This document shows, piece after piece, positions 694 to 58,239 of a stretch of 64,000 nucleotides of DNA. The translations under genes were made by a program, and so were the position numbers. The notes under the pieces are model-generated. The model was not told the origin of the DNA, made no database searches, and worked only from the letters and a program-made list of their open reading frames with translations. How positions within the stretch are numbered: position 1 is the first letter of the stretch; each line of letters begins with the position of its first letter. The stretch comes from Escherichia coli (GTDB lineage: Bacteria; Pseudomonadota; Gammaproteobacteria; Enterobacterales; Enterobacteriaceae): assembly GCF_003334815.1 (NCBI RefSeq), contig NZ_QOWO01000024.1; one strand, 5' to 3'.

Positions 694-1448
694 TCCTGCA
701 CGCGCAGGCAAAACACGGAAAACCAGGTTTACCCTGGCTGGTGTTTTTGCACGGTTTTTCCGGCGATTGCCACGAATGGCAAGAAGTGGGCGAGGCGTTT
801 GCCGACTACTCACGGTTGTATGTTGATCTCCCAGGTCACGGTGGTTCGGCGGCGATTAGCGTCGATGGATTTGATGATGTCACCGACTTACTGCGTAAAA
901 CCTTGGTTAGTTACAACATCCTTGACTTCTGGCTGGTGGGGTACTCGCTTGGTGGACGGGTGGCGATGATGGCGGCTTGCCAGGGGCTGGCGGGGCTTTG
1001 TGGGGTTATTGTCGAAGGCGGGCATCCGGGGCTGCAAAATGCTGAACAACGTGCGGAACGTCAGCGTTCCGATCGCCAATGGGTGCAGCGTTTTCTCACA
1101 GAACCGTTAACGGCGGTATTTGCCGACTGGTATCAACAGCCTGTTTTTGCCTCACTCAATGACGATCAACGCCGGGAGCTGGTGGCGCTGCGCAGCAACA
1201 ATAATGGCGCAACGCTTGCCGCCATGCTGGAGGCGACTTCTCTCGCCGTCCAGCCTGATTTACGTGCTAACCTTAGCGCCCGCACATTTGCGTTTTATTA
1301 TTTATGTGGTGAACGTGACAGCAAATTCCGCGCCCTGGCGGCGGAACTGGCTGCCGACTGCCATGTCATTCCTCGCGCCGGACATAACGCGCATCGGGAA
1401 AATCCCGCTGGCGTAATCGCAAGTCTGGCGCAGATCTTGCGTTTCTGA
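690..1448 (+). CDS. menH: 2-succinyl-6-hydroxy-2,4-cyclohexadiene-1-carboxylate synthase (alpha/beta hydrolase)
   Basis: 252-aa ORF with alpha/beta-hydrolase nucleophile motif GYSLGG; sits between menD and menB as in the men operon. Confidence 0.92.
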
Positions 1449-5725: not shown

Positions 5726-7374
5726 TTGGGACGATACTGAATCAGCACCAGACGCTCCTGACGATCGATGGCATCTGCGGGCGGAATGGCGAGACTGTTG
5801 ATATCTTCATCGCGGTCAACCGAAAGCACGAGAGTAATAATCCCCTCCTGACGATGTTGATTAAGCCAGTTTGCGAACTCATCACCGCTGACAAATCTCC
5901 CTTTCGCATCCGGATAATTAAGGCCGTATTTCAACTCACCTGTCTGGCGATACATGATGATGTCATCGCGTTGCAGGCTCCATGCCAGACCTGCGGCAAC
6001 ACCGACGCTATCAGTAAGAATATAGCGGCTTGGCTGAAGTGATTCTTGTGTCATCTCGACAAAAAATTGCGGATGTTTTCCTTCCATAACTCTGTCAGGA
6101 ATTGAAAATCCTACCAGCAACGCCAGCCCCAGCGGGCAAAGCGCGGCAAAAGGCCAGGTCTTTTCGACGTTTGTTAAGGTGTACCAGCCGAAAAATGCCC
6201 ATAGCGAAAAAATCGACCAGGCACAAAAGACTTTATAGCTCTCGAAGGTTTGCCACACCGGCGTGTTCATTGGTCCCCACGGGGAGACCACAAATGTGGC
6301 AATAATGCCAGTGACGCCAAAAGCGATGTTAATCCAGCCATTAATCCGCAGCGCCAGAGGATTATTTTTTGCTGCCAGCAAAGCGTAATGCGCCATCAGC
6401 ATTGCCAGAGATGCAAAGCAGGAAAGAATATAGGTGGGCAATTTACCTTTAGCGACGGAGAAAAACAGCAGCGGCATTATCGTCCAGCTCAACAAATAGA
6501 CGGTTGCGGAATGCTTGCGGTTTTTCCAGCCTGTGTACAGTGCACCGGGGAGTAATCCCAGCCACGGCAGGCTACCGGCAATGATGACCGGCACGTAGTA
6601 CCAGAACGGAGCTCTATGTTGGGCATCATCCAGTGCAAAGCGTTGAATATGCTCAACCCAGAAAAAATAGTGCCAGAAGTTAGGCTCCCGCTGCGCTATC
6701 GCCAGTCCCCAAGGGAGAACCGTCAGTACGCAACTGATAACCGCCAGCCAGCCGTAAATAAAGAGATCTTTCCAGCGTTTTTGCGTCGCTACCCATGGCA
6801 GCACGCTTAATACCGGCACGGCAAGGGCGAGAAAACCTTTGGTCATCACCCCCATGCCGCAGGTGATTCCCAGCAGTAAAAATCCTGCGCTTTTGCCTTT
6901 CCACGTCTGTGCCTGCATTGCCAGCCAGAAGCTGCACATTCCCGCCACCAGCCAGAATGCAATAAACGGATCGAGCACGGCATAAGTGCCGATGGCATAG
7001 ACAATAAACAATGAGAGATAAATTACTGTGGCGAGTAGAGCCAGACGTTTATCGCGCCATAAGCGCAGAGTAAACCAGGTCACCAGCGCGGCAGTTAACA
7101 GGGTCGCAAAGATAACGCCTGCCCGCACACCAAAGTTATTCGCGCCAAATAGCCATTGCCCAATGCTGTTAATCCAGTATCCGGCAATGGGTTTTTCGAA
7201 ATAACGTAGCCCTAACAGATGGGGCACAATCCAGTCGCCGGATGCCAGCATTTCTCGACTGATTTCCGCATAACGCGTTTCATCGGGTTGCCAGAGCAGA
7301 CGCGTGCTGATCGGTAACAGGTAATAGCAGGCAATAAACGCGAAGAGGCCGATAAGGTAACGTACCGATTTCAT
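5722..7374 (-). CDS. arnT: Undecaprenyl phosphate-alpha-L-Ara4N : lipid A transferase
   Basis: 550-aa polytopic glycosyltransferase (family 83-like) in arn operon position. Confidence 0.93.
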
Positions 7375-8264: not shown

Positions 8265-10242
8265 GATGGTTTATCCGTAAGATCAACGGTGCGCAGGAAG
8301 AAATCCAGCGTTTCGTCGATGGTTTCCTGCATATCAATTTTCGGCTCCCAGTCCAGGCAGCGGTGGGCATTGCGGATGCTCGGTTTACGATGCTCTACGT
8401 CCTGATATCCTTTGCCGTAGTAGCTGCTACTTTCGACAACGCGAAAGCCCGCAAACGGTGGGAAATGATGGCGCAGCGGATGTTTTTCGAAGCTCGCCAG
8501 CAGCATCTCGCCCAGTTCCTCAATGCTCGCTTCGTTCTCAGGATTGCCAATGTTGATAATTTCACCGTCGCAGCGATTTCCCGCATTTTCGATAATGCGG
8601 TATAACGCCTCGATACCATCGCGAATATCAGTAAAGCAGCGTTTTTGTTTTCCGCCATCAATCAGCTTAATCGGTGAACCTTCTACCAGATTGAGAATGA
8701 GTTGCGTAATAGCGCGGGAGCTGCCAATTCGCGCTGCATTAAGGTTATCCAGTCGTGGTCCCATCCAGTTAAACGGGCGGAAGAGGGTGAACTGTAAACC
8801 CTCTTTTTCGCCATAGGCCCAGATCACCCGATCAAGTAATTGTTTTGATACCGAATAAATCCAGCGTGGTTTATTCACCGGGCCGACGATTAAATTAGAA
8901 TGGTCCTCATCGAAGTATTTATCGCTACACATCCCATAAACTTCTGAAGTTGACGGGAAGATGATTCGCTTACGGTACTTCACGCAGTAGCGGATAATGC
9001 GCAGATTCTCTTCAAAATCGAGTTCAAATACGCGCAGCGGGTTGCGGGTATATTCAATCGGCGTGGCTATCGCCACCAGCGGCAAGACGACATCACATTT
9101 TTTGACATGATACTCAATCCATTCGGAATGAATACTGATATCGCCTTCAACAAAGTGAAAATGCGGATGATTCAGAAAACGGCTTATCGCATCGCTGCCA
9201 ATATCCAGACCGTAAACTTCATAATGATCTTCGCGCAGCAGGCGTTCTGTCAGATGGTTGCCAATAAAGCCATTCACCCCGAGGATGAGTACCCGGGTAC
9301 GGCGTCGGGCGGTGCAGGCAGGCTGGCTATTCAAGCGTGAACCTTGCACCAGGCCCAGCGTCTGCGCTAATTGCGAGCCCTGCATAGTAATGCCGTCGCC
9401 CGCCTGTCCGGTGACGATTTCCAGCGCGCCATCGCCACAGGCAATCAGCAGTGGCGCAACAGAAATCACGCTCCCCGGCTGTGCTTTGCTGGCACGAGGA
9501 TGAACACGCGACGACCAGACGGTGAATTTCTGATTGCCAACATAGCTGAAGGCACCCGGCCACGGATCGGCAACGGCACGTACCATGTTGTGCAGTACGG
9601 ATGCCGGTTTATGCCATTCAAGGAAACTGTCATCCGGCGTTCTGCGACCAAAACAGGTGGCTTCGTTTTCGCGCTGGGCGATTTCCAGAATATTACCGTG
9701 TTTAATGGCGGGTAATGTCTGTTCCAGTAGCTGGCGCGCGGCATGGCACAATTTATGATGCAGCGTAATAGCGATATCGTCTGGCGCAATGGCAATGCGC
9801 AGTTGCGCCACAATGGCCCCGGCATCGGCACGTTTCACCATTCGGTGCAATGTAACGCCAGTTTCCGTTTCACCGTTGACCAGCACCCAGTTCAGCGGCG
9901 CGCGACCACGATATTTTGGTAACAGCGAACCATGCAGATTAAATGCACCTGCGGGAGCGAGCTGCAAAATTTCGTCGTAAATAAGATGGCGATAATAAAA
10001 AGAGAAAATCACATCTGGCGACAGTTGGGCAATGCGTTCCACCCACAGCGGATGATTAACGTTATCCGGCGCATAAACCGGAATGCCTCTTTCCGCCGCC
10101 AGACGAGCCACCGAACCATAAAAGGCTTTTTCACCGGGATTATCAGTATGGGTAAAAATGGCGCTAATTTCGTAACCGGCAGCCAGCAGGGCTTCAATAC
10201 CGAGGCATCCCATATCGTGGTAGGCAAAAACGACGGTTTTCA

Positions 10243-11214: not shown

Positions 11215-12354
11215 TTATTGTCCTGCGAGTTGCTGAAGGGCTGTGATGACATGGTCGGCATCGGCGGTAGTCATATCCGGGAACAGCGGCAAAGAACAGA
11301 TGCGTTCGCTATTCCATTCGGTATTCGGTAACGACAGCGTGGGAAAACGCTCGCGATAATATTTTTGTGTGTGAGCGGCGCGGAAATGTAACCCGGTACC
11401 AATGCCTCTTTCTTTTAACGCTTCCATCAACGCATCGCGACTGATACCACAACGTTGTTCATCGACACGAATAATAAACAGATGCCAGGCGTGAACGTGC
11501 GGCCAGGCGGGAAGGCTTAATGGCTGAAAGGGGAGAGCTGCCAGTGCTTGCTGATATTGCTGGGCAATTTCGCGCCGACGGGTGTTGAGGTGCTCTAATT
11601 TGACTAACTGTGTCAGGGCAATCGCGGCGTTAATATCGGTCAGATTGTACTTATAGCCCGGTGTTAAGACTTCAGCCTGCGGTGCACGGCCCCAGGTTTG
11701 TCTGTCATAGGCATCGACACCCAGACCGTGAAATTTCAGCATCCGTAGCTGGCGGGCAAGGTTTTCATTATCAGTTACAATCAGGCCACCTTCAGCACAG
11801 GTAATATTTTTAATGGCATGAAATGAAAAAATAGCGGTACCTTTTGCGCCAATATGTCGCCCTTTGTAATACGTACCGACGGCATGGGCAGCATCTTCGA
11901 TAACTGCGATGCCGTAACGTTCGCCAATGGCGCGAATGGCGTCAATATCTGCTGGCGCACCGGCATAATGCACCGGAATGATGGCTTTAGTGCGTGGCGT
12001 AATGGCTGACTCGATAGCTTCAGGCGTGACCATCAGCGTATCGCGGTCGACATCCACCATTACCGGCGTTGCACCCAACAAGGAAATCATATTGAGGGTT
12101 GAAACCCAGGTCAGGGAAGGCGTAATCACTTCATCGCCCTTGCCAATTTTCAACGCCATTAGCGTGATATGCATTCCGGCGGTGGCTGAACTGACCGCGA
12201 TGGCATGCTGATTTCCCGTCAACTGGCAAAAAGCTTGCTCAAGCGCCTGATTCTTCGGACCGGTTGTGATCCAACCGGATTCGAGAACCTCTTTAACTGC
12301 AGCGAGTTCCTCCACGCCCATTGCTGGTCGCGAAAAAGGCAAAAATTCTGACAT
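11215..12354 (-). CDS. arnB: UDP-4-amino-4-deoxy-L-arabinose--oxoglutarate aminotransferase (PLP-dependent, DegT family)
   Basis: Track ORF 11215-12387 (390 aa); start set at the ATG giving [13 protein letters not shown] (379 aa), which matches the ArnB N-terminus as I recall it; two alternative in-frame ATGs lie upstream. Confidence 0.9.
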
Positions 12355-14648: not shown

Positions 14649-15851
14649 ATGTTAAAAGTGGAAATGTTATCCACCGGGGATGAAGTGTTACACGGGCAAA
14701 TCGTTGACACTAACGCTGCCTGGCTGGCCGATTTTTTCTTTCATCAGGGGTTGCCATTATCTCGCCGCAATACGGTGGGGGATAACCTTGATGACTTAGT
14801 CACCATTCTTCGCGAACGTAGTCAGCACGCCGATGTGCTGATCGTTAACGGCGGGCTGGGACCGACCAGCGATGATTTAAGCGCACTCGCCGCTGCGACA
14901 GCAAAAGGTGAAGGCCTGGTGCTGCATGAAGCCTGGCTCAAAGAGATGGAACGCTATTTCCACGAACGTGGACGAGTAATGGCACCGAGCAACCGTAAAC
15001 AAGCGGAGCTGCCTGCCAGTGCTGAATTTATCAATAACCCGGTAGGCACCGCCTGTGGTTTTGCCGTGCAGCTTAATCGTTGCCTGATGTTCTTTACTCC
15101 CGGCGTACCGTCAGAATTTAAGGTGATGGTCGAGCACGAAATCCTGCCGCGCCTGCGCGAGCGTTTTTCTTTACCGCAGCCGCCGGTTTGTCTGCGTTTG
15201 ACTACTTTTGGTCGTTCGGAAAGCGATCTGGCACAAAGCCTGGACACTCTACAACTGCCGCCGGGCGTAACAATGGGCTATCGCTCCTCAATGCCTATCA
15301 TCGAACTGAAACTCACCGGACCGGCAAGCGAGCAACAGGCGATGGAAAAACTGTGGCTGGATGTTAAACGTGTTGCCGGACAGAGCGTGATTTTCGAAGG
15401 CACTGAAGGACTGCCCGCGCAGATCAGTCGCGAATTGCAAAACCGCCAGTTCAGCCTGACGTTGAGCGAGCAATTCACCGGTGGTTTATTGGCTTTGCAA
15501 CTTTCTCGCGCAGGTGCTCCATTGCTGGCGTGTGAAGTGGTTCCTTCACAGGAGGAAACCCTGGCGCAAACTGCGCACTGGATTACAGAACGGCGGGCCA
15601 ACCATTTTGCCGGGCTGGCACTGGCTGTTTCGGGTTTCGAGAACGAGCATCTCAACTTTGCGCTAGCCACGCCAGACGGCACTTTCGCTCTGCGTGTGCG
15701 TTTCAGCACTACGCGCTACAGCCTGGCTATCCGTCAGGAAGTGTGCGCAATGATGGCACTGAATATGCTGCGCCGTTGGTTAAACGGCCAGGATATCGCC
15801 AGTGAGCATGGCTGGATTGAGGTTGTTGAGTCCATGACCTTATCTGTCTGA
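14649..15851 (+). CDS. yfaY: CinA-like (MoCF-binding domain) protein YfaY
   Basis: 400-aa ORF with CinA N-terminal domain features; position between yfaZ and rhmR. Confidence 0.85.
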   Translation: MLKVEMLSTGDEVLHGQIVDTNAAWLADFFFHQGLPLSRRNTVGDNLDDLVTILRERSQHADVLIVNGGLGPTSDDLSALAAATAKGEGLVLHEAWLKEMERYFHERGRVMAPSNRKQAELPASAEFINNPVGTACGFAVQLNRCLMFFTPGVPSEFKVMVEHEILPRLRERFSLPQPPVCLRLTTFGRSESDLAQSLDTLQLPPGVTMGYRSSMPIIELKLTGPASEQQAMEKLWLDVKRVAGQSVIFEGTEGLPAQISRELQNRQFSLTLSEQFTGGLLALQLSRAGAPLLACEVVPSQEETLAQTAHWITERRANHFAGLALAVSGFENEHLNFALATPDGTFALRVRFSTTRYSLAIRQEVCAMMALNMLRRWLNGQDIASEHGWIEVVESMTLSV

Positions 15852-31131: not shown

Positions 31132-33417
31132 TCAGATCTTACATGCGCCGCTTTCGCAGCCATCGTCCTGGATTGACGGCACCAGATCGTCTTGTGCGTC
31201 TTCAGCGCCGTCACGGGTGTTCTGATAATACAGTGTTTTGACCCCGAATTTGTAGGCGGTGAGCAGGTCTTTCAGCAACTGCTGCATCGGCACTTTTCCT
31301 GACGGGAAGCGTGACGGATCGTAGTTGGTGTTGGCAGAGATCGACTGATCGATAAATTTCTGCATGATACCCACCAGTTGCAGATAACCATCGTTACCCG
31401 GCATTTCCCACAGCAGCTCATAGGCGTCGTGCAGGTGCTCGTAGTCCGGCACCACCTGGCGCAAAATACCGTCTTTCGACGCTTTGATGCTGACGTAACC
31501 GCGCGGCGGTTCAATACCGTTAGTGGCGTTAGAGATCTGCGAAGAAGTCTCGGACGGCATCAGAGCAGAAAGCGTGGAGTTACGCAGACCGTGCGTTTTG
31601 ATTGACTCACGCAGAGCTTCCCAGTCGTAATGCAGCGGCTCATTAGCGATGGTATCCAGATCTTTCTTATAGGTATCGATCGGCAGGATCCCTTTCGCGT
31701 AAGTGGTTTCGTTAAACCACGGGCACGCGCCTTGCTCTTTCGCCAGCTCATTAGAGGCTTTCAGCAGGTAATACTGAATGGCTTCGAAGGTTTTATGCGT
31801 CAGGTTGTTGGCGCTGCCGTCGGAGTAGCGTTTACCGTGCTTCGCCAGGTAGTAAGCGAAGTTGATCACACCAATACCCAGCGTACGACGACCCATCGCT
31901 CCACGTTTGGCGGCCGGGATCGGGTAATCCTGATAATCCAGCAGCGCGTCAAGTGCACGAACCGCCAGAATTGCCAGCTCTTCCAGTTCATCCAGGTTAT
32001 TAATTGCGCCCAGGTTGAAAGCAGACAGCGTACACAGCGCGATTTCACCGTTCTCGTCGTTGACGTCGTTCAGCGGTTTGGTCGGCAGGGCTATCTCCAG
32101 GCACAGGTTAGACTGACGCACTGGCGCGATGGCCGGATCAAACGGGCTATGGGTATTGCAGTGGTCAACGTTCTGAATATAGATACGACCGGTAGACGCA
32201 CGTTCCTGCATCATCAGCGAGAACAGCTCAACGGCTTTCACACGCTGCTTGCGGATGCTGTCGTCTTTCTCATATTTGGTATACAGACGTTCAAACTCTT
32301 CCTGATCGGCGAAGAACGCGTCGTACAGCCCCGGTACGTCGGACGGGCTGAACAGGGTGATATCTTCACCTTTCAGCAGACGGGTATACATCAGTTTGTT
32401 GATTTGTACCCCGTAGTCCATATGACGCACGCGGTTGCCTTCCACACCACGGTTGTTTTTCAACACCAGCAGGCTTTCCACTTCCAGATGCCACATCGGG
32501 TAGAACAGCGTTGCCGCACCGCCGCGCACACCGCCCTGAGAGCAGGATTTCACCGCTGTCTGGAAATGTTTGTAGAACGGAATGCAGCCGGTATGGAACG
32601 CTTCACCACCGCGAATCGGGCTACCCAGCGCACGAATACGCCCGGCGTTGATGCCGATCCCGGCACGCTGGGAAACGTATTTAACAATCGCGCTGGAGGT
32701 GGCGTTGATGGAATCCAGGCTGTCACCGCACTCGATCAGTACGCAGGAGCTGAACTGACGAGTCGGGGTACGCACGCCGGACATGATTGGCGTCGGCAGC
32801 GAAATTTTAAATGTGGAAACCGCGTCGTAAAAACGCTTCACATATTGCAGGCGCGTTTCACGCGGGTAGTTCGAGAACAAGCACGCGGCAACTAGAATAT
32901 AAAGGAACTGGGCGCTCTCATAGATTTCGCCGGTCACGCGGTTCTGTACCAGATATTTGCCTTCCAGCTGCTTAACGGCAGCATAAGAGAAGGTCATATC
33001 ACGGTCGTGATCGATAAAGGTGTCCATCTGCTTGAACTCTTCTTCCGTGTAGTCTTCCAGCAGATGATTATCGTATTTGCCCATCTCGACCATTTTCACC
33101 ACGTGGTCGTACAGCGCAGGCGGCTCAAACTGGCCGTAGGCTTTTTTACGCAGGTGGAAGATCGCTAGGCGCGCGGCGAGATACTGATAATCCGGCGCAT
33201 CACGGGAGATCAGGTCTGCGGCAGCCTTGATAATGGTTTCGTGGATGTCAGAGGTCTTGATACCGTCATAAAACTGAATGTGGGAGCGCAGCTCGACCTG
33301 GGAAATCGAAACGTTATGCAGTCCTTCTGCCGCCCAATCCAGAACGCGATGGATTTTGTCGAGATTGATGCGCTCTGTGCTACCGTCGCGCTTTGTCACC
33401 AGCAGATTCTGATTCAT
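31132..33417 (-). CDS. nrdA: Class Ia ribonucleotide reductase alpha subunit (R1)
   Basis: 761 aa; N-terminal ATP-cone ([26 protein letters not shown]), C-terminal catalytic domain. Confidence 0.97.
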
Positions 33418-50988: not shown

Positions 50989-52173
50989 TTAATTCAACCG
51001 TTCAATCACCATCGCAATTCCCTGACCGCCGCCAATGCACAGTGTTGCCAGCCCCAGCGTTTTATCGCGTGCCTGCATGGCATGTAATAGTGTGACCAGA
51101 ATACGAGCACCACTGGCACCGATAGGATGCCCGAGCGCGATGGCCCCGCCGTTGACATTCACTTTCTCAGAATCAAAGCCCAGGTTTTTCCCAACGGCAA
51201 GGAACTGTGCAGCAAATGCTTCATTAGCCTCAATGAGATCAATATCCGCCAGTTGCAGCCCCGCCAGTTGTAACGCTTTTTGCGTGGCAGGTACTGGCCC
51301 CATACCCATCAATGCGGGGGGCACGCCACCGCTGGCATAACTTTTAATGCGAGCCAGGGGGGTAAGGCCTGCTGCCAGCGCCGCAGATTCTTCCATAATC
51401 ACCAGAGCGGCAGCACCGTCGTTAATACCAGACGCGTTCCCAGCGGTGACTGTTCCTGCTTTATCGAAGGCCGGGCGCAATGCACCTAACGCTTCAGCCG
51501 TTGAATTCGCTTTCGGGAATTCGTCTTGACTGAAGACGAAGGTTTTCTTTCGAGTGACAACATTTACCGGGACGATTTCGGCTGTAAAAGCACCGGACTC
51601 AATTGCGGCTGCCGCTTTACGCTGTGAATGTAGCGCCAGTTCATCCTGCATTTCACGGGTAATTCCGTACTCTTTAGCCACGTTTTCGGCGGTAATCCCC
51701 ATATGATAACCATGGGTGGCGCACATCAGGCCATCGCGCAGGATTACGTCATAAACCTGTCCGTCTCCAAGACGATAACCAGAGCGTGCTTTTGCATCGA
51801 GTAAGTAGGGGGCTAAACTCATATTTTCCATACCCCCCGCCACAATGCTCTGCGCCTGACCTGCCTGAATGGCCTGGGCGGCAAGCGCCACACTTTTAAG
51901 ACCCGAACCACATACTTTATTGACCGTGAATCCGCACACCGTTTCTGCCAGCCCGCTTTTTAACAGTGCCTGACGCGCCGGATTTTGCCCCAGCCCGGCT
52001 TGTAACACGTTACCCATAATCACTTCATCAACGTGTTGTGAATCGATTTTTGCACGTTCAATGGCGGCTTTAATTACTGTCGCCCCCAGGTCGATGGCGC
52101 TGGTGGAAGCGAGTGAACCGTTAAAACTACCGATAGCAGTACGTACCGCACTGACGATGACACAATTTTTCAT
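50989..52173 (-). CDS. atoB: Acetyl-CoA acetyltransferase (thiolase II)
   Basis: 394-aa thiolase with active-site Cys region [11 protein letters not shown] and C-terminal GGGQG. Confidence 0.95.
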
Positions 52174-52203
52174 TTTATATTCCTTCTGTTTGTAGGGGTG
52201 CCG

Positions 52204-53526
52204 TCAGAACAGCGTTAAACCAATGACGAAAATGACACCGGAGAAGAGCAGGGCAGTGATGCAGTAGCCCATGATGTCGCGGACACCGAGTCCGGCGATT
52301 GCCAGTGCTGGCAGCGCCCAGAATGGTTGTGCCATGTTCATCCATTGCTCGCCGTAGGCGATCGCCATTACCGATTTACCGAGATCAGCGCCCAGCGCCT
52401 GGGCTGCGGGTATCACGAAAGGTCCCTGAATAACCCAGTGACCGCCGCCAGACGGAACGGCGAAGTTAATCAGTGCAGAACTAAAAAAGGTCATTACCGG
52501 GAAGGTGTCTTTGTTCGCAACATTGATGAAGAATTCGGTAATGAGTCCGCCCAGACCGGAATGCTCCATCATCAGTTGGATCCCAGCGTAGAAGGGGAAT
52601 TGCACCAGAATACCGGCAGTACTGCGTGCTGCCGCGCTGATAGCACGCATATAAGCCATTGGCGTTTTATGTAGCAGCAGACCCGCAATCATAAACATCA
52701 GGTTGACGGTATTGATGGTGATGTTGAAGCCATGTTCGCTGAAGTACATCGCAAGGTAAGCGATACCGAGTGCGCCGATGATCAACGTCAGAATGCGGCT
52801 TTCTTCCAGTCGCTCGGATGGTGGGGCATCTTTCGGTAGCTGCTTTTGAAAATCAGCCTCTTCCATGAGTAGTTTTGGATCGATACTCACCACGTCAGAC
52901 GGTTTTGGCATCATCATGCGGGTGATAAATGGCATCACCACAATCAACGCCACAGTGATGAAAATGTTAAAACCACTGAACAGAGTATCGCCCACCGGGA
53001 TCAGCCCGGCGATATGCTCAACCGGGTTGCCCGGTGTTGCAGCCAACAGAGGCATTGATCCAGAGAAGCCGCCACCCCAGGTGAGAAAACCAATGTAGGC
53101 GCAGGCAATGAGCAACGGATAATCAGAACCGGGGACTCGCCGGGCGACTTCACGGGCAAACATTGCGCCGACAACCAAACCAAATCCCCAGTTGATGACA
53201 CAAGCGACTGAACCGAAGAAAGTGACCAGCATGACGCCCTGTACGGGCGTCTTTGCGGCGGAGGCGGCAGTACGCAGCAAACTTTTCACCGGAGCAGAGC
53301 TGGCAAGGGCATGACCGGTAACGATGATAAGCGCCATCTGCATACCAAACGCCAGCAAGTTCCAGAAACCGTCACCCCACATTTTCACCATGCTGATCGG
53401 CGTTTGTGGTGTTAACCAAAGCGCGATCACGAATGTTAGCAATGTCAGCAACATGGCAAAGATCAGTGGATCGGGAAGCCACCGGCTGACAAAACGCGTC
53501 ATAAAACGCGATATGCGACCAATCAT
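52204..53526 (-). CDS. atoE: Short-chain fatty acid transporter
   Basis: 440-aa polytopic membrane protein in ato operon position. Confidence 0.92.
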   Translation of the reverse strand: MIGRISRFMTRFVSRWLPDPLIFAMLLTLLTFVIALWLTPQTPISMVKMWGDGFWNLLAFGMQMALIIVTGHALASSAPVKSLLRTAASAAKTPVQGVMLVTFFGSVACVINWGFGLVVGAMFAREVARRVPGSDYPLLIACAYIGFLTWGGGFSGSMPLLAATPGNPVEHIAGLIPVGDTLFSGFNIFITVALIVVMPFITRMMMPKPSDVVSIDPKLLMEEADFQKQLPKDAPPSERLEESRILTLIIGALGIAYLAMYFSEHGFNITINTVNLMFMIAGLLLHKTPMAYMRAISAAARSTAGILVQFPFYAGIQLMMEHSGLGGLITEFFINVANKDTFPVMTFFSSALINFAVPSGGGHWVIQGPFVIPAAQALGADLGKSVMAIAYGEQWMNMAQPFWALPALAIAGLGVRDIMGYCITALLFSGVIFVIGLTLF

Positions 53527-54173
53527 AAATCACCCCGTTGCGTATTCAGATCGGCGGCGACTTCAAACCGAGCTTCTGTTTTGGCACGCACGGTGGCTAA
53601 ATCACACCCGTCGGCAATTTCGGTGAGCCACATTTTGCCGTCAATAAAACGAAAGACAGCCAGTTCAGTAACCAGCATATGCACCGCATGTTGCGCAGTG
53701 AGTGGCATGGTGCAGCGGCGCAAAATTTTTGCTGAACCATCTTTGGCGCAATGTTCCATGGCGATGATCACTTTGCGCGACCCGGTCACCAGATCCATCG
53801 CGCCACCCATACCGGGCACCATTTTCCCAGGCACTACCCAGTTCGCGAGGTTTGCTTCTTCGTCTACTTGCAAACCGCCGAGCACGCAGGCATCAATATG
53901 ACCGCCACGGATTAGCGCAAATGACATGGCGCTATCAAACATGGCTGCACCGGGTAAAACACCGCACGGTTGCCCGCCAGCGTTCACCAGATCTGGATGC
54001 GCTGTCGTGACCGGGCCTAAACCGAGGAAGCCGTTTTCCGATTGCAGAGTGATATGAATACCCTCCGGTAAATAATTGGCGACCATTGTGGGTAAACCGA
54101 TCCCTAAGTTAACGATGTCACCATCACGAAGCTCTTGCGCCACACGGCGCGCAATACGTTGTTTCGCATCCAT
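53523..54173 (-). CDS. atoA: Acetate CoA-transferase beta subunit
   Basis: 216 aa, 3-oxoacid CoA-transferase B subunit family; ATGA overlap with atoE. Confidence 0.93.
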   Translation of the reverse strand: MDAKQRIARRVAQELRDGDIVNLGIGLPTMVANYLPEGIHITLQSENGFLGLGPVTTAHPDLVNAGGQPCGVLPGAAMFDSAMSFALIRGGHIDACVLGGLQVDEEANLANWVVPGKMVPGMGGAMDLVTGSRKVIIAMEHCAKDGSAKILRRCTMPLTAQHAVHMLVTELAVFRFIDGKMWLTEIADGCDLATVRAKTEARFEVAADLNTQRGDL

Positions 54174-54835
54174 TATTTGCTCTCCTGTGAAACGATGATG
54201 TGGTCGATAACGGCACCAGGGGTGACAATATGGTCAGGTTGCAGCTCGCCGGTTTCGACCAGTTCATCTGGCTCTACCAGCGTGATATCAGCCGCAAGGG
54301 CTATCAGGGGGTTAAAGTTGCGGGCGCTAAGTTGATAGGTCAGGTTGCCAAGTGTGTCGCAACGATGAGCGCGAATTAGCGCCAGGTCGGCGCGCAGTGG
54401 GCGTTCGAGCAGCCAGGTTTTACCGTCGAGTGTCAGTGTCTGTTTGCCTTCCTCTACGACGGTGCCGACACCCGTTGGGGTGAGAAAACCACCAAGTCCA
54501 GCTCCACCACAGCGAATTTGCTCGATTAGCGTACCTTGCGGCACCAGAACGACGTCCATCTCACCAGATATCATGCGCCGACCTGTTTCCGGGTTGGTGC
54601 CGATATGTGAAGCAATCACTTTGCGGACTCGACCATTGACGATGAGCGGACCGATGCCGGTATCAACAAACGCGGTATCATTGGCTATCAATGTCAGGTC
54701 GCGAACACCAGATTCCAGTAATGCTTCAACCAGGCGGGATGGAGTGCCAATCCCCATAAATCCGCCCACCATGATGGTCATGCCGTCACGAAAGAAGCCG
54801 GTGGCGTCTTGTAATGTCATCAATTTTGTTTTCAT
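54173..54835 (-). CDS. atoD: Acetate CoA-transferase alpha subunit
   Basis: 220 aa, CoA-transferase A subunit family; 1-nt overlap with atoA. Confidence 0.93.
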
Positions 54836-54880
54836 TTTTTATCCCTCTTGCATACACCGTTGTGGGTACAGTCAGGCAAT

Positions 54881-54896
54881 AGCAAGGGGAGTGCCA
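54881..54896 (-). promoter_or_regulatory. Sigma-54 (-24/-12) promoter of atoDAEB
   Basis: Minus strand reads TGGCAC-tcccc-TTGCT (GG and GC elements 5 nt apart), about 45 bp upstream of the atoD ATG; matches the AtoC sigma-54 activator encoded nearby. Confidence 0.8.
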
Positions 54897-54978
54897 GAAT
54901 GAGATTATTGGATTTAGTTATTTAACTAATTGAATATGAAGGGATAAATTGGATGGGGATTTATAAGGAGAATGAGCG

Positions 54979-55019
54979 GCTATGCAGAAAATTGCGCACT
55001 GTGCAAATTTCTGCATAGC
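54979..55019. promoter_or_regulatory. AtoC enhancer: 20-bp inverted repeat upstream of the ato sigma-54 promoter
   Basis: GCTATGCAGAAAATTGCGCA-c-TGTGCAAATTTCTGCATAGC, a near-perfect palindrome about 100 bp upstream of the -24/-12 element. Confidence 0.75.
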
Positions 55020-55030
55020 AAGTTTTGGTG

Positions 55031-56416
55031 TTATACATCCGCCGGATCGATACCGTATTCCTGGAGTTTATACATCAATGCACGGCGACTGATGCCCAGC
55101 ATTAAAGCAGTGCGGGTTCGGTTTCCTTCTTGTTGTTCCAGCACTTCCATAATGATGCGTTTTTCGACGCGTTTAATTTCCTCTTTTAAATTACGCTCAC
55201 CGACAGGGGCTGTTTTTACCTCGCCAGCATTACAGACTGGCTGACGAATCTGTGGCGGAAGATCCTCAGAAAAAATGATCGGGCCTGAATTCATCACGAC
55301 GGCGCGTTCAATAACGTTGGAAAGCTCTCGAATATTTCCCGGCCATGACCAGGCGGTAAGCAGTGACATTGCCATCGGATCGATGTCGATAATATCGCGC
55401 TGATTCTCACTACTGAATTTTTGCAAAAAGTGATTAGCTAACAGGGAAATATCTTCCCGGCGATCGCGCAGAGGCGGCAGTATTAAATGAATAACGTTAA
55501 GGCGATAAAAGAGATCTTCACGGAAGGTGCCTTCTTTTACCATTGCCTGCAAGTCGCGGTTGGTGGCAGCAATGATGCGGATATCAACTTTTATGGTCTG
55601 ATGGCCGCCAATCCGTTCAAATTCCCGTTCCTGTAGAATGCGTAGTAATTTGGCTTGTAGTACCAGCGGCATTTCGCCAATTTCGTCGAGGAGCAGAGTA
55701 CCTTCGTTGGCTCGTTCAAATAATCCCTGACGCAAGGTTTGTGCACCAGTAAATGCACCTTTTTCATGACCAAACAGTTCACTTTCGAGCAACGATTCCG
55801 GCAGCGCCGCGCAGTTGACTTTAATGAACGGCCCCTTTGCCCGCCGCGAATTGTAGTGAATCGCTCTGGCAATCAACTCTTTCCCGGTGCCGCTTTCACC
55901 GCTAATCAAGACGCTGGCCTGAGAAAGGGCAATTTTGGCGGTGTCTTTGCAGATGTCCATCATCGCCGGGCTGTTGGTGAGAATGTGCCCCCATTGCCAG
56001 CTGGTGCTCAGTGCCTGGTGCAGATGACGGATCTCTTTTTTCATTGACTGGAGTTGTAAAGCGCGCTGAACGATTAAATTCAACTCATCGAGATCAAACG
56101 GTTTAATAACATAGTCGAAGGCTCCGCAGCGTAGCGCTTCGACGGCGGTTTCCACTTCCGCATAGGCCGTCATCAGAATAACGGGTGTCCGGGTCTCATG
56201 GCTGCGCATCTCCTTTAGTGCCTTGATGCCGTCCATCTCTGGCATGCGGATATCCATCAACACCACATCAGGGTGAATATCGGCAAACAGGTGTAATGCT
56301 GTGCGTCCGTTGTTCGCACAATGTGTTTCGAATCCTTGTAGTGCAAAAGCGGTGCTCAGCATACGGCGAACATTATCTTCATCATCCACAATAAGGATGC
56401 GATTAATAGCAGTCAT
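55031..56416 (-). CDS. atoC: Sigma-54-dependent response regulator AtoC
   Basis: 461 aa: receiver domain, AAA+ domain with GAFTGA motif (ESELFGHEKGAFTGA), C-terminal HTH. Confidence 0.95.
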   Translation of the reverse strand: MTAINRILIVDDEDNVRRMLSTAFALQGFETHCANNGRTALHLFADIHPDVVLMDIRMPEMDGIKALKEMRSHETRTPVILMTAYAEVETAVEALRCGAFDYVIKPFDLDELNLIVQRALQLQSMKKEIRHLHQALSTSWQWGHILTNSPAMMDICKDTAKIALSQASVLISGESGTGKELIARAIHYNSRRAKGPFIKVNCAALPESLLESELFGHEKGAFTGAQTLRQGLFERANEGTLLLDEIGEMPLVLQAKLLRILQEREFERIGGHQTIKVDIRIIAATNRDLQAMVKEGTFREDLFYRLNVIHLILPPLRDRREDISLLANHFLQKFSSENQRDIIDIDPMAMSLLTAWSWPGNIRELSNVIERAVVMNSGPIIFSEDLPPQIRQPVCNAGEVKTAPVGERNLKEEIKRVEKRIIMEVLEQQEGNRTRTALMLGISRRALMYKLQEYGIDPADV

Positions 56417-58239
56417 ACAGTCTGATTTCCCTGCGGGTTGATCGGTAAAATAAGCGTGAAGGTTGCGCCGTAGCCCGGCAAACTGGCGACGCGAATATCA
56501 CCCTGATGGGCATTAATGATGCGTTGACTTAACGCCAGACCAAGCCCGGTTCCTGAGGCTTTGGTGGTGAAAAAGGGATCGAAGATCTTTTTTTGCAGCG
56601 AGAGATCAATGCCACAGCCGTTGTCCTCTATCGAAATGGCCTGTTGTGAGTCGCTGTATTGCCAGGTTTGAATGCGAATTTTCCCTCGTGCGCTGATAGC
56701 CTGGACGGCATTGATCAGGATATTCAGTAGTACCTGTTTGAGCAGTTCACGATCGGCGTTAATCGGGCTTAATTCATTATCCAGTTCGCTTATGAAGTCG
56801 ACCCGCGCTTGTACGCCGGCGGTTTGTACCAGTACCAGAGTTTCTTCAACCAATGCATTGAGGCTGACTTGTTGCCATTGACTGTGGCGTGGACGTGAAA
56901 ATTCGAGCAATTGCTGAATAACTTTGTTAATTGAATCGATTTCTTTGAGTACTACGGACAGATATTCCTGATGTATTGGGTCACTGGTTTGTTGGCGCAA
57001 GATCTGTACATAACCACGAATAGCCGTTAACGGATTACGTACTTCATGCGCGACGCCAGCCATCAGCTCACCCAGTGTGGCGAGGCGTTCTGCTTGCGCC
57101 ATGCGGCGCTGGGTTTCTTTGCGGGCAGTTAAATCAGAGAAAATCACCAAAGCACCTATCATTTCACCGTGCGTGTTATGAATACGACTGGTAGTGACAC
57201 TGAGTTCAATGGTGCGGTCACGACCTGGAAAACTGATCTCCAGCGCCACATGTTCGGTGCCATGTTCCAGCGTATCCAGTACTGGACTGTAGAACTGAGT
57301 ATTGTCGAACAACATGGAGTAAGGCTGCCCTACCAGTTCATGGCGTTGATAGCCAGTGATAACTTCTGCTGCTGGGTTCATGGTGGTTACATCACCCTGG
57401 CGGTCAATGGCAATGACGCCATCGGCAGCGTTTTCAATAATCAGATCGTTAAGTGTCCGCGTTTCACGCAGTGCCTGGGCGAGGTTATTAACACTCTGAC
57501 TGATTTGCCCCATTTCACCGGGCAATTGTGGTAATCGAGTGGGAATATTTTGTGCCAGAGTCGAGAGGCCATCGGTGATGATATCAATATTGGCGCTCAG
57601 GCGACGGGAGAAAAGGACAATCAACAGCAGGCTTATCAGCAAACCAGCGGTGAGCACAATGATAATCCTCACATCCATTTTCCAGGCCTGGCGGCGAATA
57701 TCTTCGGTTAATTCATTGGCCCAGATATAGCCGAGGATTTCACCATTACGCTCAATGGGGAGCATTGAATTCAAAATATCGCCGCGCACCTGCCTGCCTG
57801 AATAAACTAAAGGGGTATTTGTACGCATCACTTCGCGACCAGGGTGATCTGCGGCAATGGTAACGCCGACATTATTCTGATATAGCGCTGAAGGCGCGTA
57901 GGTGATTATCGCATCCAGCATTTTGTTGTAATAACCAGCACCGATGCCAGGGAAGGCGTGAGTGATATTTTCGGTAATGGGGGCAAGTTCTGCATTTAAT
58001 GCGCGGATACGCTCCTCACGTGGTAAGTCGATGTAGAGATCATAGCGATCGCCTAGTGCCTGATTAAGCAGGTTGACCACGGCAGAAAGTTTTTTCTCTT
58101 TTTCAGATAAGACTGCTGAACGTCCTTCCGTTTCTACGATATAACCAATAGTAAGCGTTGGGACAATGACCATCAGGATTGCCATCAGGATCATTTGATT
58201 GCGTAAGCGGCGTGGATAAATCCACTTCATATAATGCAT
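56413..58239 (-). CDS. atoS: Sensor histidine kinase AtoS
   Basis: Start set at MHYMKWIYPRRL (608 aa); TM, PAS and HisKA (H-box AHEVRNPL) plus HATPase domains; ATGA overlap with atoC. Confidence 0.93.
   Translation of the reverse strand: MHYMKWIYPRRLRNQMILMAILMVIVPTLTIGYIVETEGRSAVLSEKEKKLSAVVNLLNQALGDRYDLYIDLPREERIRALNAELAPITENITHAFPGIGAGYYNKMLDAIITYAPSALYQNNVGVTIAADHPGREVMRTNTPLVYSGRQVRGDILNSMLPIERNGEILGYIWANELTEDIRRQAWKMDVRIIIVLTAGLLISLLLIVLFSRRLSANIDIITDGLSTLAQNIPTRLPQLPGEMGQISQSVNNLAQALRETRTLNDLIIENAADGVIAIDRQGDVTTMNPAAEVITGYQRHELVGQPYSMLFDNTQFYSPVLDTLEHGTEHVALEISFPGRDRTIELSVTTSRIHNTHGEMIGALVIFSDLTARKETQRRMAQAERLATLGELMAGVAHEVRNPLTAIRGYVQILRQQTSDPIHQEYLSVVLKEIDSINKVIQQLLEFSRPRHSQWQQVSLNALVEETLVLVQTAGVQARVDFISELDNELSPINADRELLKQVLLNILINAVQAISARGKIRIQTWQYSDSQQAISIEDNGCGIDLSLQKKIFDPFFTTKASGTGLGLALSQRIINAHQGDIRVASLPGYGATFTLILPINPQGNQTV

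Follow-up and report, generated by a model that had tools for sequence, protein, structure and literature searches.

The ato locus and its gene context

The DNA analysed here, called the window throughout, is a stretch of 64,000 nucleotides from Escherichia coli in which the atoSC regulatory genes are directly followed by the atoDAEB operon. The corresponding, identical stretch of E. coli K-12 MG1655 is annotated in RefSeq with the gene order rcsC, atoS, atoC, atoD, atoA, atoE, atoB, yfaP and yfaQ, and the limits of the operon and of its regulators were taken from the open reading frames together with that annotation:

50989 to 54835, minus strand: regulated operon atoDAEB
54173-54835, minus strand: atoD, frame intact
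53523-54173, minus strand: atoA, frame intact
52204-53526, minus strand: atoE, frame intact
50989-52173, minus strand: atoB, frame intact
55031 to 58239, minus strand: regulators atoSC
55031-56416, minus strand: atoC, a 461-aa response regulator and sigma-54 enhancer-binding protein
56413-58239, minus strand: atoS, a 608-aa sensor kinase

All six ato reading frames are intact and free of internal stops. The interval of interest, 54836-55030, is exactly the spacer between atoC and atoD, bounded by the atoC stop codon (55031-55033) on one side and the atoD ATG (54835) on the other. A domain search of AtoC returned a receiver (Response_reg), an AAA+ domain (Sigma54_activat, 2.4e-75) and a Fis-type HTH (HTH_8), with the GAFTGA motif at residue 220. 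The cognate enhancer-binding protein, carrying both the AAA+ domain and GAFTGA, is encoded directly upstream of the promoter that it would serve.

Around the spacer, 451 bp match E. coli K-12 MG1655 with 100% identity, and the same 451 bp are present in 3925 of the 5426 complete genomes of E. coli. Over the 10,451 bp compared, atoSC-atoDAEB shows zero differences from MG1655 from atoS through atoB, and the three mismatches to the MG1655-derived record NZ_CP032679.1 fall in rcsC (59759 and 59337) and yfaQ (49728). These three differences may be variants of either the window's strain or the laboratory isolate behind NZ_CP032679.1.

The atoC-atoD junction is absent from 1501 of the 5426 complete E. 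coli genomes and the ato locus is thus accessory. In strain KH_005 (L082), an IS1 element truncates atoC, and the promoter, atoDAEB and yfaP-yfaT have been replaced by it, up to yfaA.

A sigma-54 promoter upstream of atoD

Within and beside the spacer we recognise the following elements:

55000-55019, minus strand: promoter-distal AtoC arm, 20 bp; sense strand GCTATGCAGAAATTTGCACA, plus strand TGTGCAAATTTCTGCATAGC
54979-54998, minus strand: promoter-proximal AtoC arm, 20 bp; sense strand TGCGCAATTTTCTGCATAGC, plus strand GCTATGCAGAAAATTGCGCA
54923 to 54935, minus strand: IHF-like site ATTCAATTAGTTA, matching WATCAANNNNTTR with one mismatch, at about -53 to -65 relative to the predicted start
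54881 to 54897, minus strand: sigma-54 -24/-12 promoter CTGGCACTCCCCTTGCT, with GG at 54895/54894 and GC at 54883/54882
54870 to 54872, minus strand: predicted atoDAEB transcription start
54836 to 54869, minus strand: 5' untranslated leader of atoD; its Shine-Dalgarno sequence, AGAGGGA, lies at 54848-54842

The sigma-54 promoter that the preliminary description had read from the minus strand, TGGCAC-N5-TTGCT, is present, laid out as TGGCAC (54896-54891), TCCCC (54890-54886) and TTGCT (54885-54881), with the GG and GC dinucleotides exactly one helical turn apart within TGGCAC-N5-TTGCW. When the window was searched with this pattern (TGGCACNNNNNTTGCW), the atoD site was the sole match with 0 mismatches; once one mismatch was allowed, 7 matches appeared where 4.2 were expected. 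The atoD motif, in the orientation of that gene, stops 45 bp short of the ATG, and the predicted leader is about 35 nt.

Scoring with a weight matrix had been proposed as a check on this assignment. With atoD excluded, 41 intergenic sigma-54 sites on the sense strand remain among those mapped by ChIP-seq in Table 1 of Bonocora et al. 2015, and from these we built a matrix of 17 columns. The atoD site scores 14.3 bits and ranks 24 of the 42 ChIP-defined intergenic sites in a leave-one-out comparison; it is mid-range among real sites and not below threshold. Under the exact score distribution, a score at least this high has P=6.3e-6 per position, equivalent to 0.8 expected chance matches in the window on both strands and to 0.001 within the spacer in the right orientation.

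The identical 17-mer is the published sigma-54 ChIP-seq site OS21 upstream of atoD, listed at a distance of 35 nt from that gene and carrying the EcoCyc flag for experimental confirmation (Bonocora et al. 2015). OS21 is a site of middling strength, with a ChIP fold-above-threshold of 5 and a PSSM score of 9.39, where the sites flagged 'C' in Table 1 of the same study range from 8.7 to 14.1. Binding in vivo is matched in vitro, as the spacer between atoC and atoD is also a gSELEX target of the RpoN holoenzyme, with peaks of 48% and 77%.

Further sigma-54 motifs occur elsewhere in the window. The motif CTGGCATGGAGCCTGCA (5972-5988, minus strand; 15.2 bits), in arnT, is the published high-stringency intragenic ChIP-seq site IS28, and ATGGCACTGAATATGCT (15753-15769, plus strand; 12.7 bits), in yfaY upstream of rhmR, is the published high-stringency intragenic ChIP-seq site IS27; the latter probably corresponds as well to the RpoN+NtrC peak that gSELEX lists at 2,360,468. 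The window's best sigma-54 motif, CTGGCAAAAAGCTTGCT (12223-12239, plus strand; 15.5 bits), lies antisense inside arnB and appears in neither the high-stringency nor the low-stringency ChIP list of Bonocora et al. Motifs in menH (1425-1441, plus strand), arnA (9743-9759, plus strand) and nrdA (31720-31736, plus strand) coincide with low-stringency ChIP-seq peaks (Bonocora S2 Table), and weak ChIP-seq peaks near the ato locus are recorded in rcsC, atoB and yfaP (Bonocora S2 Table).

The AtoC palindrome and an IHF-like site

Upstream of the promoter, a repeat finder returned two arms, 54979-54998 and 55000-55019, that are 90% complementary (18/20) and separated by 1 nt; these are the same arms as in the preliminary description, whose inverted-repeat strings and coordinates are correct. 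Its account of a 20-bp AtoC palindrome was right in naming an AtoC site and wrong in the size, since the two 20-bp arms and the central G at 54999 together form a palindrome of 41 bp (55019-54979), GCTATGCAGAAATTTGCACA-G-TGCGCAATTTTCTGCATAGC. By our arithmetic, chance would produce an 18/20 inverted repeat at a fixed gap of 1 nt with a probability of about 1.5e-9 per position. The palindrome begins 11 bp past the atoC stop codon; counted from a start predicted at 54870, it covers about -109 to -149. From its edge (54979) to the -24 element (54896) there are 82 bp, and from centre to centre (54999 to 54889) 110 bp, so that its placement at about 100 bp upstream of the promoter had been a fair one.

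The distal arm can be parsed as a quasi-dyad, TATGCA-N6-TGCACA (TATGCA-GAAATT-TGCACA), and the whole palindrome has the layout hexamer-N6-hexamer-N1-hexamer-N6-hexamer. Hexamer-N6-hexamer is the usual format of an NtrC-family dimer site. As each arm takes this form, a two-dimer model is the simplest, and the palindrome most likely accommodates two AtoC dimers side by side, one per 20-bp arm. Matta et al. 2007 reportedly described an upstream activating palindrome for AtoC at the K-12 atoDAEB promoter.

Comparison with published AtoC coordinates, also proposed as a check, gave full agreement. The ChIP-positive AtoC sites of atoD are GCTATGCAGAAATTTGCACA at -184 to -165 and, on the other strand, GCTATGCAGAAAATTGCGCA at -163 to -144 (Pilalis et al. 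2011, BMC Genomics 12:238, PMC3118216, Table 5); both arms in the window match these 20-mers exactly and lie at the same offsets from the atoD start at 54835. The same study gives the AtoC site as an experimentally verified 40-bp palindrome, composed of two 20-bp sites, that governs acetoacetate inducibility, and reports acetoacetate-inducible occupancy of this sequence by AtoC in vivo by ChIP (Pilalis et al. 2011, PMC3118216).

Midway between enhancer and promoter lies the IHF-like site, which had been omitted from the module as first described. The pattern itself is unenriched in the window (59 matches against 53 expected), and in an alignment of 18 orthologous sequences the site falls within a conserved A/T-rich block, ATTCAAT.A..TTAA. 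The site probably belongs to the atoDAEB control module and may have a functional role there. Matta et al. 2007 reportedly found IHF to be a critical component of induction.

Conservation in orthologous loci

An AtoD probe against one genome per species gave 80 loci, or 81 with the MG1655 locus, and in 49 of the 81 an AtoC homolog is encoded directly upstream of the AtoD homolog. Every one of these atoC-atoD loci has a strong sigma-54 motif, scoring 11.3-22.2 bits and 12.7 bits or more in all but one, and in the enterobacterial loci the motif ends 40-48 bp before the ATG. The promoter, the palindrome core and the IHF-like block hold fixed positions in about 45 atoC-atoD species. In 18 aligned spacers, TGGCA..TTGC and TTGC.CA.T..GCAA are invariant, the latter as a palindrome core that reads TTGCRCA-N-TGYGCAA. 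In the 21-genus table of Bonocora et al. 2015, the motif upstream of atoD scores well in some genera only; the low scores in the others probably arise because the atoD homologs there are not linked to atoC.

Absence of the palindrome from orthologous ato promoters had been put forward as grounds for doubt, and it is not missing from them. The long palindrome is found in Escherichia, Citrobacter, Edwardsiella piscicida, Atlantibacter, Raoultella, Entomohabitans, Symbiopectobacterium, Serratia and Buttiauxella. Measured back from the ATG, the palindrome, or at least its core TGYRCA-N1-2-TGYRCA, is 136-159 bp away in Escherichia, Citrobacter, Edwardsiella, Atlantibacter, Raoultella, Symbiopectobacterium, Serratia and Buttiauxella; in Entomohabitans the distance is about 169 bp. 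The four-hexamer layout persists in Morganella psychrotolerans, Leminorella and Enterobacillus, where the long palindrome is lacking; the four-hexamer pattern was not detected in the atoC-atoD spacers of M. morganii or Yersinia.

In the more distant loci the AtoC-type site takes the form hexamer-N6-hexamer-N1/2-hexamer-N6-hexamer without a long overall palindrome. A separate hairpin stands between the atoC stop codon and the AtoC-type site in Morganella (L039, L041, L042, L044), Leminorella (L043), Enterobacillus (L037) and Yersinia (L046). In Morganella this post-atoC hairpin is followed by a T-run; no such separate hairpin is present in E. coli or its relatives.

Why the palindrome arms stay symmetric

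The outer arms of the palindrome vary between genera yet remain reverse complements of each other, and among loci L003-L052 changes are seen on both sides in 16 of 24 pairs. The arm covariation score is 0.374, compared with 0.174 for shuffled sequences (none of 500 shuffles reaches the observed value) and 0.05-0.12 for slid controls. The outer hexamers and the 6-bp spacers have been replaced several times across the Enterobacterales, as illustrated by GCTATGCAGAAATT, CCAGGCAAAGATT, GCCATGCAATAAAT, TGAGAAGGAATT, GCGGGAAGAAAAT and CCTGACAAAAAT. We found no description of this outer-arm covariation in the literature searched. A change in the DNA-binding specificity of AtoC as the source of the variable arms can be ruled out for the recognition helix, since LGISRRALMYKLQEY is invariant across the genera in which the arms differ.

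Candidate causes of the symmetry are the symmetric affinity needs of two AtoC dimers, homogenisation by quasipalindrome template switching and a second structural role. It is unlikely, if still worth considering, that the long palindrome is maintained by something other than base-specific recognition by AtoC; such maintenance could come from a second function, whether a hairpin at the end of atoSC or a cruciform aiding the enhancer, or from template-switch homogenisation. Quasipalindrome template switching is an established mutational mechanism.

A second job for the palindrome, kept long either to terminate or stabilise the atoSC transcript as an RNA hairpin or to form a DNA cruciform, strikes us as rather improbable. 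The covariation and the both-sided changes described above speak for such a reading, as does the invariance of the AtoC recognition helix in the same genera, and the region folds as RNA at -31.6 kcal/mol with z = -6.5; moreover, Morganella, Leminorella, Enterobacillus and Yersinia combine a separate post-atoC hairpin with an AtoC-type site that is not a long palindrome. Any palindrome, however, automatically yields a strong fold z-score, and template-switch mutation can maintain the symmetry of the arms without selection. The atoC strand has no intrinsic-terminator pattern: no rho-independent terminator was found on the minus strand over 54600-55300, where the hairpin is followed by CGCTCATTCTCC, and in no ortholog is the hairpin followed by a U-run. 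A helix in the sense RNA should show a wobble bias, and the lack of one speaks against an RNA hairpin: outside the core, the sense-strand positions that are not Watson-Crick pairs comprise about 8 A.C and about 6 G.T. The asymmetry of the core, TGCACA/TGCGCA, also occurs in both orientations. With no hairpin-plus-T-run, no excess of G.U over A.C and an uninformative z-score, we rejected the palindrome as an atoSC terminator or sense-RNA hairpin.

Transcription start, leader and alternative readings of the promoter

The atoDAEB transcript is predicted to begin at 54870-54872. The start would fall at 54872 if the palindrome occupies -146 to -107, coordinates reportedly given by Matta et al. 2007. 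The value of 54870 follows from Bonocora's rule, which places the start 19 bp downstream of the motif centre (54889) and here reproduces their listed distance of 35 to atoD.

In the ortholog alignment the leader contains a conserved block, GTACCC..ACGG.GTATGCAA..GGGA. The whole region from the -12 element to the ATG (54836-54880, minus strand) is unusually conserved for a leader, as TTGCTATTCCC...GTACCC.A.AACGG.GTATGCAA.A.GGGAA, and K-12 has ATTGCC in it where most species have ATTCCC. A structured 5' leader was considered and set aside: the consensus fold comprises 4 pairs at -0.6 kcal/mol, too weak to explain the conservation.

It has been described for sigma-54 promoters, and proposed for glnKp, that an anti-Shine-Dalgarno insulator can silence translation on read-through RNA (bioRxiv 10.1101/086108). 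The C/T-rich stretch in and after the promoter, CTCCCCTT in K-12 and TTCCC in most orthologs, could in principle silence atoD translation in this way on RNA reading through from atoSC, and we rate this, too, as improbable. In K-12, CCCCTT is the predicted pairing partner of the atoD Shine-Dalgarno sequence, whose predicted unpaired probability drops from 0.82 on the sigma-54-initiated leader to 0.20 on the read-through RNA, and the same direction was seen in all 22 orthologs tested. Shuffled upstream sequences, however, sequester the Shine-Dalgarno nearly equally in K-12 (mean 0.25; 29% of shuffles as low), the values fall below 3% of shuffles in only 4 of 13 orthologs, and atoD goes unmentioned in the main text of bioRxiv 10.1101/086108.

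That the -24/-12 match is an inert sigma-54 site or a chance one, with atoDAEB driven by another promoter or by read-through from atoSC, is scarcely credible: sigma-54 does bind more than 135 sites in E. coli, mostly intragenic and of unknown function (Bonocora et al. 2015), the window has four further sites at 14.3 bits or above, and no terminator pattern lies between atoC and atoD, but position, conservation and published binding rule such a site out, as this one is intergenic, correctly oriented, 35 nt from atoD and flagged as experimentally confirmed, its position and core sequence are invariant across orthologs, just 0.001 chance matches are expected in the spacer, a scan of 54600-55300 found no sigma-70-like promoter, and reporters with this promoter require atoS and atoC and respond to acetoacetate.

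Discussion

Taken together, our results identify the region, with a probability of roughly 0.95, as the native and intact atoDAEB promoter of E. coli K-12, in which a sigma-54 promoter is combined with an AtoC enhancer. It is the same locus as the K-12 atoDAEB promoter and AtoC palindrome already in the literature (Pilalis et al. 2011; OS21 of Bonocora et al. 2015), with no difference between them. The view that the known ato regulatory architecture is intact is thereby upheld, given the 100% identity to MG1655 and the presence of both arms and the 17-mer as published. This control region has already been characterised in full, and that of the window is the same as in the reference strain.

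The signal to which the module responds calls for one correction. In the study of Filippou et al. 2007, putrescine and spermidine activate an atoC-lacZ fusion in a concentration-dependent manner, whereas atoD1-lacZ and atoA-lacZ, with 240 and 460 bp upstream of atoD, show no polyamine activation. The polyamine responsiveness that had been ascribed to this region does not, therefore, hold for the atoD promoter (Filippou et al. 2007). Acetoacetate is another matter, as Pato-GFP responds to it only in atoS+ atoC+ hosts.

The literature establishes that sigma-54 binds here in vivo as well as in vitro, that AtoC binds and that acetoacetate induces the operon, and a mechanism can be proposed in which these findings are joined to the elements described here. 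RNA polymerase carrying sigma-54 would bind 54881-54897 and wait there as a closed complex. Acetoacetate would be sensed by AtoS, which would then phosphorylate AtoC, and phosphorylated AtoC would bind the 41-bp palindrome, whose centre is some 129 bp upstream of the start, and assemble on it into an ATPase oligomer. Looping of the intervening DNA, probably helped by an IHF bend at about -60, would bring AtoC to the polymerase, where its GAFTGA loop would contact sigma-54 and ATP hydrolysis would drive formation of the open complex. From this complex atoD, atoA, atoE and atoB would be transcribed, with a start at about 54870-54872. In this scheme the binding of two dimers, the bending by IHF at atoD and the exact start site are inferred.

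The arrangement has close parallels in the NtrC-dependent promoters glnAp2 and glnHp2. They share with atoDAEB an enhancer-binding activator of the response-regulator kind, built of a receiver, an AAA+ domain with GAFTGA and a Fis-type HTH, as well as TGCAC-type dyad sites lying over 100 bp upstream of a promoter of the form TGGCAC-N5-TTGC. At glnHp2 there is an IHF-type bend between enhancer and promoter, a feature that atoD, with its putative IHF site, may share. The systems differ in that the AtoC dimer sites abut as one 41-bp palindrome, whereas the NtrC sites are two separated 17-bp sites, and in that the ato signal is acetoacetate, received via AtoS, rather than nitrogen status.

A second parallel is provided by PrpR and the prpBCDE operon of propionate catabolism, likewise a sigma-54 promoter for the catabolism of a short-chain acid with a dedicated enhancer-binding protein. 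Both the prpBCDE promoter, GTGGCACACCCCTTGCT, and that of atoD, CTGGCACTCCCCTTGCT, have an unusually C-rich spacer between the -24 and -12 elements (Bonocora et al. 2015). The activator, however, is a different one, PrpR lies outside any two-component system, and the enhancer sequence is another. In the gSELEX study of RpoN, PrpR is placed among the NtrC-family enhancer proteins in the introduction and under the TyrR family in the discussion.

The spacer between atoC and atoD is, in short, a textbook-style module of sigma-54 and an enhancer-binding protein that has been footprinted, mapped by ChIP and reused in acetoacetate biosensors, and the understanding of the ato system is unchanged by the present results. 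The fixed position of the promoter, the invariant TGCRCA-N-TGYGCA core and the co-varying outer arms may be of modest value for the engineering of Pato sensors or for models of enhancer-binding-protein sites. For the genome from which the window derives, the module implies normal AtoSC control of short-chain fatty-acid and acetoacetate catabolism.
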